The notes beneath the pieces are model-generated. The model had not been told where the DNA came from and made no database searches. It worked only from the letters and a program-made list of their open reading frames with translations. 50,229 nucleotides of DNA, taken from the IMG/VR virus record IMGVR_UViG_2718217713_000003; one strand, given 5' to 3'. Both the position numbers and the translations under genes were made by a program. Origin of the DNA: a virus. Taxonomy: Duplodnaviria > Heunggongvirae > Uroviricota > Caudoviricetes. Below are positions 1,659-13,883 of the stretch, one piece after another. Positions within the stretch are counted from its first letter, which is position 1. Each line of letters opens with the position of its first letter.

Positions 1659-4097
1659 TTAAGAATCAGCCTGACTCGGGATCAGTTTTTGCCAGATAAC
1701 TGAAACGTATTTTGCCTGGTAACGGGCGTCATCAAGTGCATTATGGCGCTCACCTTCGAATGGAATAGCCGTTCTGGCATCGAAGTCTATGGCTTTCCCC
1801 AGCTCAACGATTGTGCGTACATCGCGATCGTTGTAGTAACGCCACGGGCAGGGGATCCCCTGCCGTTCGTATGAACGGCGCAAAATCGTGTTGTCGAAGT
1901 TGGCTCCATTTCCCCAGACCTGAACAAAAAATTCACCGGAGTTTTCGTCGATAAATTCCCGCAATTGTAACAGTGCATCATCTAACGGGATTTCATCGGT
2001 CATAATGGCAGATTGCGCTTCGCGTGATTGCTTAAGCCACCATTTAATGGTGTCCCGATCAATAACTCCGCCAGCAGTTTCCAGATCGATAGTCTTACTA
2101 AATTCCGGTCCCATATCTCCGGTTTGCGGATCGAAAAATATTGCACCTATTGAGATGATCGGGGCATCAGGATTTTTTCCCATGGTTTCAAGGTCGATCA
2201 TTAGATGGTCACACGTCCTGCTGGTGGATGTGATTTCGTGATGACCGTTCACATTAATTAAGGGATCTGTCGCCTCGCCAGTTTCATTATCGCTATCGTG
2301 ATGCTGATTGCCGCCAGGGTTCTCCTTGTGTGGATGTTCAGCGCCTTCCATTTCCTCCGGATCATTTTCCTGAACTTCAACCTGATTCTCTTCATTGAAT
2401 GTTTCCTGGTATGTTGCGTCGCCCATCACCACACCACAATCAGGGCAGTTGCCGCCGCCGGTCTGACCGCAGGCGGTACAGACTTTTTCCGGTTCTTGTT
2501 GCTCTTCTGGTTCAGGCTGTTTCGTTTTTGGCTCGTTTTGTAACGCATTTGAGCTGTTTTGTTCCGCTTTCTGGTCGTTCCGTTCCGATTCTTGCTGGTT
2601 CTGGTTCACAGAATCGCGGGTTTCAATCCCCTTCACCCATTTCGGATCATTCGGGTCGCTAATCCCTGCAACAAATTCACCACGTGATGCAGCAAGCAAC
2701 TTATCGGCGTCAGGCTGGTTGATATTGGCTGCCTGCATAATTTTGTTTACTTCGTCAGCGGTGACTTTTACTTGGTTAGCGGAACTCACCTGCGACTGAG
2801 CATCCAGCGACTGCGCGTCCTGGCTATGTTCAGTTGTATCCGGTTCCATTGTTTCAGTTGTTGTCCGTTCACCTGCCATTGCGTCAGATGGTTGTGGTTT
2901 TTCTTCTGTTTCACGCTCAGTAACCACCTCGAGGTTAATTTCTTCCAGGATATCTTTTTCCGGCGTATGCCGGGCAACTGTGAGAGTTTCCTTGCTGGGG
3001 TTCTCGTGATCAGTTTCCGTCAAATAGGCGTTGATATACCCCTGAAGGCGTCCCGGGTAGTGATAAAATTCAGGGTGTGCGCTTCGGATAAGTGCAAAAA
3101 TAGCGGCGCGGGAATAGTCCAGAATACCCGGGGTTGCACGAAGTGCTGCGGACCATTCTTTGAACGGACTTTCTTTTTTCAGGACGACTTCTTTTGCGCG
3201 ACGATAAACGCTGCGCGGAATTTCATAAATATTAAAATCCATCGGAAGTGTGGCTGCTGCAATCTCCACATCCAGTGTGTCGAGGGTGTGTACTAAATTC
3301 GGATTGCGATCGGTTTTGTTCCCGCCACCGGCATTAGCACCGGAAGCCGTGCGGGTGATACGCGAAACACGATTTCCTTTCATCCACTCTTTTGTTAGCA
3401 GACCGCGATCGGTGTAGTCTGCGTCTAGGTATGCTTCGAAAAAAGCAGTCATCGGCCCCAGGCTTGAATTGCCAGGATTAGGGAAAACTTTGTCAGTATC
3501 ACGCACCAGTTTGTGGAGGTCGCGAATCTCCAGCGGGTCGAGCAGGCTGGTTTTGTGGGAAACAGCCAGGGCAGTAACAGCCGGTAGTTCTTCAGCCCGT
3601 GCAATGTGTAATGCCTGGAGTTCGTCGCGTGAAACGTGCGTTACCGGTTTTTTGCTGCCGTGTTGAGCAAGCCAACGAATGGGCAGTTCCTGACCGGAAA
3701 CAGGCAGAAGCATGCTCTCCTCAATCTCAGTCATGTCTTCGCCGTTGATGTTGGTATTGTCAGTGCTGGCTGGTTTGTCCTGAACTGAGGGGGAAGGGCC
3801 GATAAATGTCATTGTGATGCCATCTTTCCCGCCTTTTTCATAGCGGTTGCAGAATTCCGTATCAAACACGCCTTCTGGCGGAAGGTCGTCAACAACGGGC
3901 AAATTGACGCGGACGGGTTTTTTAAAGTCGTCTTCATCATAATCGTTGTCATCCATTGCGGTAATGCAGCGGGAGATTGCAACAGATAATTTTTTTGCTG
4001 TAGTCCAGTAAAAACCACCTTTAATTCCCAGGCGTTTTCTGACTTTGTCATTTTTTGCTTCGCAATATAGTGCAAATTCTTCTTTATCAGTGCTCAT
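1659..4097 (-). CDS. RecE-like (exodeoxyribonuclease VIII N-terminal homology) protein with a C-terminal DnaQ-like DEDDh 3'-5' exonuclease domain
   Basis: 812 aa. The N-terminal two thirds resemble RecE of the Rac prophage ([44 protein letters not shown] zinc ribbon). The C-terminus carries DEDDh exonuclease motifs ([23 protein letters not shown]). No recT/bet follows. Confidence 0.8.
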
Positions 4098-8044: not shown

Positions 8045-8467
8045 GTGGCAAAAGTTTTTACACAAGAAGAGCGGGAAAAAATTAAATGGCAGGTGGTGGA
8101 ACTCGTGCGCCAGAGCGGCCGTGAGACGTTACGGCAACTGGAAGCTAAAACAGGTGCGACTAGATATCTGATGAGCGTTCTTGCCAGAGAGCTGGTAGCC
8201 AGTGGCGATGTATACAACTCCGGCTACGGGTTATTCCCCTCTGAACAGGCGCGTAAGGACTGGCAAAACGCCCGCAAAAAACTCTCGAGGGCAAAGGTGA
8301 AGAAACCTGCTGTGGTTGATCCGGACCTTATCTGGTCATCACCTGACGGAGAAATACGTCGCTACGACAGTCGCCTAAACATAATCTGTCGCGAGTGCCG
8401 GAAGAGCGAAGTTATGCAGCGCATACTGGCTTTCTATCAGGGTAATTTTCAGGACGTGGCGCAGTGA
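8045..8467 (+). CDS. Hypothetical protein, translationally coupled to the downstream methyltransferase fragment
   Basis: 140 aa ORF with a GTG start after an AAGGGGGA Shine-Dalgarno. Its stop overlaps the GTG start of the methyltransferase ORF. Confidence 0.5.
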   Translation: MAKVFTQEEREKIKWQVVELVRQSGRETLRQLEAKTGATRYLMSVLARELVASGDVYNSGYGLFPSEQARKDWQNARKKLSRAKVKKPAVVDPDLIWSSPDGEIRRYDSRLNIICRECRKSEVMQRILAFYQGNFQDVAQ

Positions 8468-8820
8468 GTGCACCGGCAACCATTCTTGATATGTGCTGTG
8501 GCAGCCGCATGTTCTGGTTCGATAAGTCTGACGAACGGGCGATATTTAGCGATATCAGAAAAGAAGGATACACATTACGCAATGGGAGACGCTTGATTAT
8601 CAGCCCTGACATTATCGCAGATTTTCGTGCATTATCATTTGCAGACGCATCTTTTTCGATGGTTGTATTAGACCCTCCGCATCTTGAGCGTGTTGGTGAT
8701 AACGCCTGGATGGGAAAGAAATATGGACGGCTGAATAAAGATGCCTGGCGTGATGATTTGCGACAGAGATTTAAAGAAGCTTTTCGGGTGTTGAGGCCGC
8801 ACGGCGTTCTGATTTTTTAA
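8464..8820 (+). pseudogene. DNA methyltransferase fragment (SAM-binding motif and DPPH catalytic motif), cut by an in-frame TAA
   Basis: 118 aa with FxGxG-like MCCGSRMF and an N6/N4-methyltransferase motif IV (VLDPPH). The frame continues for 29 more codons after the TAA at 8818-8820, to 8910. Even the extended product of about 150 aa is too short for a full methyltransferase. Confidence 0.6.
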
Positions 8821-9972
8821 TGGAATGAAACGCAAATACCGGTAAGCCAGATTCTGGCACTGACAGATAGAAAGCCTGTTATCTGTCAACGAACAGGGAA
8901 AAAACGATAAAACCCACTGGATTATTTTTATGAAAGAGGCATCCAGTGAGTAGATTCGTAAGGTTACAGATACGTATATCTGAATAATTAAATTCAGTTC
9001 TGTAAATAAAACTTAATCCTTAACCGGATGGATTTCTGCACCCTCAGAACATCAGGAGGCCGCCCGAAAGGGCGGTAGTGAAATGCGAAAGTTCAAAATT
9101 ATTATTGAAACGGGAATAGCTGGTGGAGATTTTGAGGATGTATTCGAAGTGGACGATGACGCAACACCTGATGAAATTCATGACGGAGCATAAGAAATTT
9201 TCTTTAACTACTGCAATTACTCATACCACGAAATAAAAGACGATGAGGAAGAACAAAGTGGCTGATTTTTGTTCAGCTAAATATAACATCAGTTTTGAAG
9301 AGCGGGATGAACTATTAATGGACTATGGTGAGTTACGCGGTGGAAGTGCTGCTGATGTCGAATCCTAGCGTGATGACTATGAAGCGGGAAAAACTCCGGT
9401 CGAAGCATATTGTGATGAGTGGGGCGATGAATGAGCGAGATTAATTATCAGGAAGGGCATGAAACGGCGGGGCAAGCAAAACCAGTGACATGGCGATATC
9501 GCTACGTGAAAAAAGGCGTTACGGACTTTCAGGGGAAGTAGTGGTCTGGTGACTGGAAATATGTACCGAAAAAAGAGGATTGTAACGACAGGCCGAACTA
9601 TCAAATTCAGGCCTTATTCACTGCCTCACCAGTCCCGGTTACATCAGAAGAATTGGTTAAAGCTGTGCACTTTTATGAACAACTAAAACGCGAAAATCCA
9701 CCAACATCCGGCAACTAGATTAATGGGTTAACTATGTCGGTTAAACGACCAGCCAACTGAAAAAGCGGAAACCTGATTACAGGTTGCCAGATAAGGCAAT
9801 GAGCTACCTGGCGCGGAACGGACTGATAAGTATGGGGAATGTTTTACGATGAACCTTTAGACTAAAGAGTTTGTAACGCTATGTAAGTGATTTTTTCTGG
9901 TTTAGATATTTATATGTCCGGCCAAATTGAGGTGTGTTTAAATGTAATTGCACATTGATTGTAGGAGGAATA

Positions 9973-10152
9973 ATGAAAAACGCATTGCAGTTTTTGTTTG
10001 TTGCGTTCTGGTTGTTCGCATCATGTATGCCCATCATCTTCACAGCAAGGTATATGGAAAAAGTTGATGTTTTGATATTAATATTTGGATATATAAATGC
10101 CCTTTTTTTAGGGGTGTTCATGGCGGTCATGTGCATTGAATACTGGCGGTAA
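9973..10152 (+). CDS. Small hydrophobic (two predicted transmembrane segments) protein
   Basis: 59 aa (MKNALQFLFVAFWLFASCMPIIF...FGYINALFLGVFMAVMCIEYWR) with a consensus AGGAGG Shine-Dalgarno 5 nt upstream of the ATG. Confidence 0.45.
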   Translation: MKNALQFLFVAFWLFASCMPIIFTARYMEKVDVLILIFGYINALFLGVFMAVMCIEYWR

Positions 10153-10486
10153 ATACAGCGAACTCCATTGGTTTAGTTGGATATTTACTGTGCTGGACAA
10201 AAACGGTTTGCGGGGAAATCTTAGTTAAGTAGAATGACTGCGGGTGCTTGAGGCTATCTGCCTCGGGCACGAACACCAACGGCAGGTAGAGAAAAGCCCC
10301 AGTTAACATTACGCGTCCTGCAAGACGCTTAACATTAATCTGAGGCCAATTTCATGCCAGACACATGTAGGTTAGCCTCTTACGTGCCGAAAGGCAAGGA
10401 GAAGCAGGCTATTGTTAACACCAAGCTGTAATGTCCCCTTTGAACCATTCTAAAATGTCCCCAGACAATTCTCTGGGGGATTTTTC

Positions 10487-10858
10487 ATGACCAAAGAAAC
10501 TGTTACGATGAGTCATAAGGAACTCCACCGACTTCAGATTATTCAGGAGTCAATTAATCGACATATTACTCAGGAACAAGCTGCGGCACGCATTGGCATT
10601 TCTATTCGGCAGGTTAAACGTCTGGTGCAACGGTATAGAAATGAAGGGCCTTCTGGTCTGGTTTCCCACCGACGTGGAAAGCGTCCTAATAATTCCTTTT
10701 CTACTGAATTCAGAGCAACAGTAATTTCACTCCTCAAAGGCCGTTACGCTGATTTTGGACCTACGTTTGCGTGCGAAAAATTGCGCGAGATACACGGTTT
10801 ATCTTTATCCGTTGAAACTCTCAGAAAGTGGATGATAGAAGAGGGGGGTATGGCGTGA
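10487..10858 (+). CDS. DDE transposase, N-terminal HTH part (frame-disrupted)
   Basis: 123 aa with a helix-turn-helix (ARIGISIRQVKRLVQRY). The downstream catalytic frame is open from 10839, so the two parts join across a G6 run at 10842-10847. Confidence 0.7.
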   Translation: MTKETVTMSHKELHRLQIIQESINRHITQEQAAARIGISIRQVKRLVQRYRNEGPSGLVSHRRGKRPNNSFSTEFRATVISLLKGRYADFGPTFACEKLREIHGLSLSVETLRKWMIEEGGMA

Positions 10859-13656: not shown

Positions 13657-13727
13657 ACCAAAGCATGACATCTCTGTTTCGCACCGAAGGTGACACTTCT
13701 GCTTTGCGTTGACAGGAGAAGCAGGCT

Positions 13728-13883
13728 ATGAAGCAGCAAAAGGCGATGTTAATCGCCCTGATCGTCATCTGTTTAACCGTCATAGTGACGGCACTGGTAA
13801 CGAGGAAAGACCTCTGCGAGGTACGAATCCGAACCGGCCAGACGGAGGTCGCTGTCTTCACAGCTTACGAACCTGAGGAGTAA
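13728..13883 (+). CDS. hokD: Hok-family small toxic membrane peptide HokD (RelF)
   Basis: 51 aa found by hand translation (MKQQKAMLIALIVICLTVIVTALVTRKDLCEVRIRTGQTEVAVFTAYEPEE). Below the ORF-track cutoff. Confidence 0.8.
   Translation: MKQQKAMLIALIVICLTVIVTALVTRKDLCEVRIRTGQTEVAVFTAYEPEE

Follow-up and report, generated by a model that had tools for sequence, protein, structure and literature searches.

The Qin early region and its gene remnants

Sequence identity identifies the window analysed here (a stretch of 50,229 nucleotides) as the cryptic prophage Qin of E. coli: a 1.8-kb portion that includes the segment of interest is 100% identical to the chromosome of E. coli IAI1 and to many other strains. 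Positions 8911-9970 were found at ≥99% identity in 514 records, and at least 80% of this segment was covered in 1,206 genomes. In IAI1, Qin lies beside rspB and carries int/xis, dicB, dicA, dicC, a YdaT-like gene, a replication gene and DUF977, after which the segment follows; on its 3′ side lie IS remnants, ydfW, flxA, relBE, hokD, ydfU, ydfT, cspF/B, essD and rrrQ. The three-gene block described below is located in the early region, 3′ of the replication genes and 5′ of hok/sok.

A preliminary description had reported that 8911-9970 harbours no intact gene. This was confirmed, as the longest ORF is 45 aa on the + strand and 75 aa on either strand, and RefSeq/PGAP places only pseudogenes within the identical IAI1 sequence, namely those of the methyltransferase, the DUF7167 gene and the third gene, with 'internal stop' or 'frameshifted' notes. 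The pseudogene nature of the segment is already known, being labelled in RefSeq, and with these labels in place the segment no longer qualifies as the least explained part of the window, as it had been called. The features of the segment and its left flank are as follows.

8464-8953, + strand: SAM-dependent methyltransferase pseudogene, delimited by alignment with the intact 157-aa O111 homologue; PGAP 'frameshifted; internal stop'
8980-8997, no strand assigned: inverted repeat CTGAAT-N6-ATTCAG, CTGAATAATTAAATTCAG, with 6-nt arms and a 6-nt spacer
9015-9076, + strand: conserved leader, long form, 62 nt, AATCCTTAACCGGAtGGATTTCTGCACCCTCAGAACATCAGGAGGCCGCCCGAAAGGGCGGT; 181 copies, 58 distinct variants
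9027-9045, + strand: hairpin 1, consensus GAGGG-N9-CCCTC
9054-9059, + strand: Shine-Dalgarno (SD) sequence AGGAGG, 23 nt upstream of the ATG at 9083
9059-9076, + strand: hairpin 2, G-CCGCCC-GAAA-GGGCGG-T, a perfect 6-bp GC stem with a GAAA loop
9083-9265, + strand: gene 1, DUF7167 (PF23768 / phrog_1997) pseudogene, 88% identity over 60 aa; PGAP 'internal stop'
9258-9434, + strand: gene 2, pseudogene of a 58-aa gene (phrog_519), 81% identity over 58 aa
9431-9852, + strand: gene 3, pseudogene of a 171-aa gene (phrog_660), located by tblastn; PGAP 'frameshifted; internal stop'
9853-9972, + strand: intergenic spacer, 97-100% identity to intact relatives
9963-9968, + strand: ordinary AGGAGG, followed after 4 nt by the start (ATG) of a conserved membrane ORF of 59 aa

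At this locus, the genes are intact in related prophages of about 88-94% identity. The intact references were strain S12, for the orthologues of 60, 58 and 171 aa, and an O111 strain, for the 157-aa methyltransferase. In S12, the DUF7167 protein (60 aa), the 58-aa protein and the 171-aa protein are encoded by genes that overlap by 8 and 4 nt. When the S12 and O111 proteins were compared with the window by tblastn, they tiled 8464-8935 and 9083-9849 across the stops, with amino acid identities of 81-88% across the tiles and 54% for residues 127-171 of gene 3, which bears out the earlier suggestion of decayed nin-region genes. The short ORFs had been seen as lying in shifting frames; the ORFs are real, and most of them share one frame within each gene. 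Straight-through translation keeps the frame across the single in-frame stops inside each gene, and the frame shifts only between the three overlapping genes and past the 4-bp deletion in the third. A translated search in which the pieces tile one known gene with simple frameshifts, a plain pseudogene, had been named as a refutation of the earlier observation; the search did return plain pseudogenes, though of three genes with nonsense mutations. On these alignments, the 1.1 kb segment almost certainly represents three small early-region Qin genes, each inactivated by a point nonsense mutation. The coding remnants leave just two intergenic pieces, 8937-9082 and 9853-9972, unaccounted for. Family searches with the 59-aa membrane ORF that follows the second piece (9973-10152) gave no match.

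The lesions could be placed individually. In the methyltransferase pseudogene, residues 1-146 align at 8464-8901, after which the frame changes, with residues 145-157 at 8897-8935; the lesions comprise AAA→TAA at 8818-8820, an additional G at about 8894-8896, and the change of the original stop TAG to GAG at 8934-8936. The left edge of the segment, 8911-8936, is the decayed 3′ end of this pseudogene. In the DUF7167 gene, Lys37 was changed from AAA to TAA at 9191-9193, and translation through the stop reads MRKFKIII...DGA*EIFFNYC...QSG* (9083-9265). The ORF starting with MRKFKIII had been pointed out previously at 9084-9191; it exists, and its coordinates are 9083-9193 including the stop. The stop-repaired DUF7167 translation scored 50.7 bits against PF23768 (cut-off 24.4; E=1.9e-13), and the intact S12 orthologue scored 52.1 bits. 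In the IMG/VR sample, 55 of the 71 copies of this gene are intact at 60 aa, and the stop found in Qin is present in 11 of the 71.

The 58-aa gene, which shares 8 nt with gene 1 and 4 nt with gene 3 and is left unannotated by PGAP in IAI1, has a changed start (ATG→GTG at 9258-9260) and carries a Trp TGG→TAG change at 9366-9368; its read-through translation is ...DVES*RDDYEAG...GDE*, ending at 9434. In the tblastn comparison, the intact proteins of genes 1 and 2 aligned at 9083-9262 and 9258-9431, respectively. Gene 3 has TAG stops at 9539-9541 (codon 37) and 9716-9718, a 90-bp in-frame deletion at 9694/9695 that is flanked by AATCCNCCA direct repeats, and a 4-bp deletion at 9749/9750. Its residues 1-91 align at 9431-9703 with 87% identity and residues 127-171, which lie in a different frame, at 9706-9849 with the 54% identity given above, and the read-through translation is MSEINYQ...FQGK*WSGDW...SGN* (9431-9718).

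After repair of the stops, the window translations still match PF23768, phrog_1997, phrog_519 and phrog_660. The ancestral products of the three genes belonged to these families of small phage proteins, that is, DUF7167 (PF23768)/phrog_1997, phrog_519 and phrog_660, and the copies in Qin are inactivated, unlike the intact members. Searches with the ancestral proteins returned only PHROG/DUF families without assigned function, and no meaningful match in PADLOC, NCBIfam or the PDB; the PDB matches were restricted to designed TIM barrels with E about 1e-4 and were taken as spurious. No paper mentioning DUF7167 was found in a literature search for this domain.

Decay of the segment in the Qin lineage

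The lesions are common to every Qin-lineage copy examined (IAI1, PhiR42_1, CFSAN061772 and MEI005), and MEI005 carries extra ones, namely TAG→TAA in the 58-aa gene and a 1-bp deletion in an A-run. The occurrence of added lesions in sister strains fits neutral decay. Since the lesions are fixed across the Qin lineage and are still accruing, this DNA now evolves as non-functional sequence. Moreover, several kinds of mutation occur together (A→T, G→A, C→T and indels), and there is therefore no sign of a special mutational process or of recoding. Hardly any evidence speaks against the inactivation of the genes, and hundreds of independent assemblies make assembly errors an unlikely source of the stops. 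The N-terminal fragment of 36 aa may retain some role, as may the transcript.

The history of gene 3 can be traced further. In intact copies, the variable codon 37 is CAG, CCG, ATG or CTG, and as CAG is among these forms, a single C→T change suffices to produce the TAG of gene 3. Alleles of the TAG-bearing family account for 31 of the 79 copies, and their secondary frameshifts and deletions differ between prophages. TAG-bearing gene 3 is an old null allele travelling with mosaic prophages.

It could be argued that the in-frame stops are read through, by suppression or programmed recoding, and that the three genes still function, since genes 1 and 2 each contain exactly one in-frame stop and their flanking codons are otherwise well preserved. 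We regard this as hardly credible. The stops lie in three different contexts and involve both TAA and TAG, most relatives have sense codons at the stop sites, and no recoding signal is evident; frameshifts and deletions are also present in gene 3, the methyltransferase is also frameshifted, and the further lesions in MEI005 add to the damage.

The same locus (Qin, next to rspB, with dicABC, relBE-hokD and cspB/F) and the same routes of decay, namely nonsense point mutations, deletions, short indels and insertion of IS elements, link these remnants with the pseudogenes of the cryptic lambdoid E. coli prophages Qin/Kim, Rac and DLP12. The difference from K-12 Qin is that the segment is deleted there, whereas IAI1-type Qin keeps it as decayed genes. 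In K-12 the entire segment is missing, and dicC is directly followed by ydfX and ydfW. The absence of the whole segment from K-12 Qin indicates that IAI1-type Qin keeps an earlier stage of decay.

The conserved leader upstream of the DUF7167 gene

The first intergenic piece contains a palindrome and the leader. The palindrome had been reported at 8976-8993; its sequence is present, 4 nt further on, at 8980-8997. Within 8900-10000, 24 inverted repeats of this kind were counted, this one included, and in most relatives, e.g., S12, KKa014 and ETEC-2264, it is imperfect (..TTTAG). In S12, KKa014 and ETEC-2264, the TGA with which the upstream gene ends falls within the repeat site. We therefore consider the repeat to be at chance level, as only one of 24 similar repeats and imperfect in most relatives.

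The second element in this piece is the leader, copies of which were collected by three differently anchored IMG/VR scans. The long-form variants share 96% mean column identity, and their flanks are unrelated on both sides. A short form of 25 nt was found in 33 copies; it consists only of [A/G]GGAGG and the hairpin and starts 5 nt after the upstream stop codon. The arrangement of AGGAGG, perfect hairpin and ATG that had been noticed previously was confirmed at 9054-9059, 9059-9075 and 9083, and it is conserved before unrelated genes. Hairpin 2, whose perfect core GCCGCCCGAAAGGGCGG occupies 9059-9075, lies between the SD and the start codon and is kept in both the long and short forms. Hairpin 1 is absent from the short form and is therefore dispensable; in the Qin lineage, a G→T change at 9029 breaks one of its pairs. 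Variation within the module falls mostly in the hairpin 1 loop and the spacer, whereas the GGAG core of the SD is invariant in 56 of 56 distinct variants. A GGCA loop variant was also observed, which is not of the GNRA type, as C is not a purine.

The context of the leader changes from copy to copy. Upstream of the long form are roughly 8 or more gene families, and the leader begins 20-86 nt past their stops. Downstream, it stands directly before the start codon of at least 6 unrelated families, including DUF7167, DUF4014, Ea22-like 'MTELTKEQ' proteins, and further proteins of 43, 158 and about 172 aa. Some contigs contain two leader copies about 1,064 nt apart, each before a tightly packed gene block. 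A DUF7167 homologue of a Klebsiella phage has no leader; an ordinary GGAGG lies 7 nt before its ATG, which overlaps the upstream stop. The existence of this leaderless homologue with an ordinary SD suggests that the leader is a replaceable initiation region and not a part of the gene. Among GTDB species representatives, the leader was confined to E. coli and Shigella, apart from one contig of a Collinsella MAG, which is probably contamination; about 2,500 E. coli genomes contain it. The leader was absent from K-12, where CPS-53, Rac and Qin were searched. In Qin, the leader now heads a 36-codon fragment only.

Structure predictions were then set against these variants. Hairpin 2, with a GC stem of 6-7 bp and the GAAA loop, appeared in every MFE and centroid prediction, and the z-scores of the leader fold were -1.8 to -2.4. 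In a covariation test of both hairpins with 56 distinct variants, 95.8% of cells were paired, with one double change, and shuffles equalled the observed value; the RNAalifold covariation term was -0.08. In hairpin 2, 22 one-sided wobble changes were counted versus 16 pair-breaking cells, and a single compensatory event (CCACCC/GGGTGG) was seen; in hairpin 1, 98.6% of cells were paired, and one compensatory change, G-C→U-A, was found in the variant L196. With one double change and shuffles that match the observed value, covariation is uninformative on the proposal of a split ribosome-binding site considered below. The SD-hairpin-ATG arrangement is beyond chance because it is kept nearly unchanged before unrelated genes, not because of its fold energy.

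Several known RNA elements were compared with the leader. Hairpin 2 is not an intrinsic (Rho-independent) terminator, because no U-tract follows it; the sequence after the hairpin is TAGTGAAATG, and the hairpin was not among the terminator-like sites that the scan picked up. Hairpin 2 is reminiscent of boxB of the lambda nut site in having a short GC stem and a GAAA loop, and the 5′ UCCUUAAC of the leader is loosely similar to boxA. The sequence of lambda boxB is GCCCUGAAAAAGGGC. A lambda-type nut site was rejected, since hairpin 2 has a tetraloop and not a pentaloop, no boxA is adjacent to it (about 35 nt and a second hairpin separate it from the string similar to boxA), and the location is wrong, about 2 kb downstream of dicC/pR and past the replication genes. 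The leader also differs from nut in being repeated before gene blocks and in having a short form without the 5′ part.

The absence of intact ORFs, together with the conserved leader and its hairpin, could also be read as a functional non-coding RNA or regulatory locus that has replaced the genes, and the preliminary description had offered a structured non-coding locus for the whole segment. The results argued against this, and we consider it very improbable. An Rfam scan of 8700-10500 at E≤1 found nothing inside 8911-9970, including AgvB, AsxR, STnc100 and Sok; a sok match at 10242-10413 is outside the segment. A promoter consensus scan gave one promoter-like site versus 3.6 expected from shuffles, no terminator follows the hairpins, and overall the promoter and terminator matches were at or below shuffle expectation. 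The sequence is, moreover, collinear with coding sequence of relatives. The Pas prophage sRNAs (bioRxiv 10.64898/2026.05.13.724894) were rejected as counterparts on architecture and location: they have a 3′ terminator stem-loop with poly-U and lie beside lysis/late genes, whereas the leader has no U-tract and lies in the early region. Only the 62-nt leader 5′ of the first gene looks like a conserved element at the RNA level.

A putative split ribosome-binding site and its implications

In the linear sequence, the strong SD lies 23 nt from the ATG, that is, more than 15 nt from the start, with no alternative SD at canonical spacing, since no second SD-like sequence occurs between hairpin 2 and the ATG. 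Among 124 copies, the distance from the end of AGGAGG to the ATG is 22-27 nt, and it shrinks to 6-11 nt if the 16 nt of the hairpin are left out of the count, so that the hairpin is predicted to restore a spacing within the range of 5-11 nt. A local SD was found in only one downstream family. By analogy with phage T4, we infer that the SD-hairpin-ATG arrangement may be a split ribosome-binding site, a reading to which we give about an even chance. In this model, a stable GC hairpin would sit between the strong SD and the start codon, its folding would leave about 7 nt between the SD and this codon, and the three-gene block would be headed by a split-RBS leader of the T4 gene 38/25 kind.

In T4, such hairpins cut the SD-AUG spacing from 22 to 5 nt for gene 38 and from 27 to 11 nt for gene 25 (PMC3014915), and stem mutations reduced translation (Nivinskas et al. 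1999; Malys and Nivinskas 2009, reviewed in PMC3014915). In common with these genes, the leader has an SD whose linear distance from the AUG is too long (23 nt, versus 22 and 27 nt in T4), and the two are separated by a stable hairpin that, once folded, would give a spacing of 5-11 nt; the arrangement is likewise conserved among related phages. On the other side, there is no sequence relationship between the T4 sites and the Qin leader, the Qin-type unit is portable and is found in temperate prophages of Escherichia before at least 6 genes unrelated to one another, and the long form adds an upstream hairpin and an anti-SD-like UCCU. Furthermore, the T4 sites were shown by mutagenesis and probing, whereas the leader here is known from its sequence and predicted fold. 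A full-text literature search for the hairpin sequence returned no paper and no description of the leader.

The same leader is reused before many unrelated gene blocks and therefore also coincides with a mosaic recombination joint. This raises the alternative that it is a recombination linker only, i.e., an exchange site of lambdoid prophages that is kept uniform by repeated exchange and whose hairpin has no role as RNA. Both flanks are indeed swapped independently (roughly 8 or more families upstream and 6 or more downstream), homology between mosaic relatives starts and stops at the module, successive blocks are headed by two copies in some contigs, and the covariation is not significant. 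However, a linker alone fails to explain why 6-11 nt always separate the end of the unit from a start codon and why GGAG is invariant; the downstream genes mostly have no other SD, and the 25-nt short form retains exactly the SD and the hairpin. We consider a role as linker alone unlikely, and a linker role and a translation role are not mutually exclusive and can coexist.

A combination of the two roles can be put forward tentatively, in which the SD and GC hairpin, in the 25-nt and 62-nt forms, would be a selected portable initiation cassette that doubles as a recombination joint. The unit would head each exchangeable early-region block in the lambdoid prophages of Escherichia and Shigella, and ribosomes would enter a translationally coupled block at the same sequence that is used as the joint when homologous recombination shuffles the blocks. 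Gating of such a cassette by the upstream UCCU with hairpin 1, or by an RNA-binding protein, would be possible.

The 5′ half of the long form also bears on whether the leader acts as a regulated switch or operator, in which the SD would be masked and freed again by UCCU and hairpin 1, or the GAAA hairpin between the SD and the AUG would be the target of an RNA-binding protein of the phage. In the long-form consensus, both the MFE structure and RNAalifold pair the invariant UCCU (9017-9020) with AGGA (9054-9057) and enclose hairpin 1, and by this pairing the SD would be sequestered rather than presented; CCCUC is able to pair with the SD instead, and the 5′ half of the module is conserved as strongly as the SD. 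Against a switch, the outer helix has only 4 bp with zero covariation, the short form stands before the same kind of gene without the entire 5′ half, and no candidate binding protein was found. A regulated switch is accordingly doubtful in our view, and rather improbable on the whole.

Taken together, a decayed gene block, headed by what may be a split-RBS leader, is very likely the best explanation of the segment. The apparent anomaly is thereby removed and becomes routine gene decay in a domesticated prophage. IAI1-type Qin represents an intermediate stage of decay with four adjacent genes that carry independent knock-outs, and such neighbours are useful for dating and ordering prophage domestication. 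If the leader is a split ribosome-binding site, it would be a temperate-phage example of the kind of site described in T4. It would also illustrate that the same short sequence may act in gene expression and form a mosaic joint, and gene callers may mis-score such starts, which have no adjacent SD.

A deletion in gene 3 and the small ORF that follows it

Comparison of gene 3, the pseudogene of a 171-aa gene (phrog_660), with the related sequence L004 revealed an internal in-frame loss:

Window 9690-9700, against L004 ~3230-3330: 90-bp in-frame deletion in gene 3

In the intact allele the deleted segment is flanked by two AATCC(G/A)CCA direct repeats, and its location between them suggests that the deletion arose by replication slippage or short-homology recombination.

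A short ORF occupies part of the interval from gene 3 to sok:

Window 9973-10152, + strand: hydrophobic 59-aa ORF, MKNALQFLFVAFWLF..., with AGGAGG 4 nt upstream

This AGGAGG is of the ordinary type, and the ORF is 97-100% conserved across all relatives. PGAP annotation of it was absent from the E. coli chromosomes examined, an opposite-strand ORF is annotated at the site instead in the phage record PhiR42_1, and searches against Pfam, PHROGs, NCBIfam and PADLOC gave no match.

The split hok/sok locus

A strong match to sok (RF01794, 99.8 bits) and collinearity with the intact locus of strain S12 defined a hok/sok locus in two parts:

Window 10242-10414 and 13711-13883: hok/sok locus, two parts

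The sok match and the mok/hok leader are collinear with the S12 locus up to ...AGGAGAAGCAGGCTAT|G, at the hokD start codon, beyond which collinearity stops and IS-related DNA begins. The hokD ORF, which opens with the same AGGAGAAGCAGGCTATG, is located ~3.3 kb downstream of this break, behind relBE, and a duplication of ~16 nt is present at both joints. The locus is thus split, and ~3.3 kb, holding the IS remnant, ydfW, flxA, ydfV and relBE, lies between the toxin ORF and its regulatory leader.

Paired SD-hairpin units and related records

In the related sequence L078, two SD-hairpin units (a Shine-Dalgarno sequence and a GC hairpin before an ATG) were found on the same strand at 8279-8306 and 9342-9370, ~1,064 nt apart. 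Such pairs, also found in L024, L047, L072, L121 and L130, run from the short form to the long form, each unit standing directly 5′ of the gene that opens a block of small, overlapping genes, which is the DUF4014 block for the first unit and the DUF7167 block for the second.

The GenBank "complete genome" phage record of Escherichia phage PhiR42_1 (PV340562.1, 48,668 bp), which comes from ECOR13, matches this part of Qin at 99.2% identity and shares all its stops. Broken fragments such as the 36-aa stub are listed in it as ordinary hypothetical proteins. The record thus seems to describe a defective prophage of the Qin type. The same Escherichia-prophage sequence, at 88-96% identity, is contained in PP818812.1, named Actinobacillus phage vB_Apl-pPE4, and in JAIHTM010000290.1, a 3-kb contig assigned to a Collinsella MAG, and host attribution or binning looks doubtful for both.

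Stage of decay relative to K-12 Qin

From 8464-8953 on, the methyltransferase gene and the three genes of 8911-9970 form a row of four, each independently inactivated by mutation. Their neighbours in the same prophage, namely DUF977, the replication genes, dicA/C, relBE and the lysis genes, are intact. In K-12 MG1655 Qin (1647174-1647850), ydfX and ydfW come immediately after dicC, and the whole region that begins with the YdaT-like gene and ends with the IS remnant, 8911-9970 with it, is missing. By this comparison, IAI1-type Qin stands at an earlier stage of decay than K-12 Qin.
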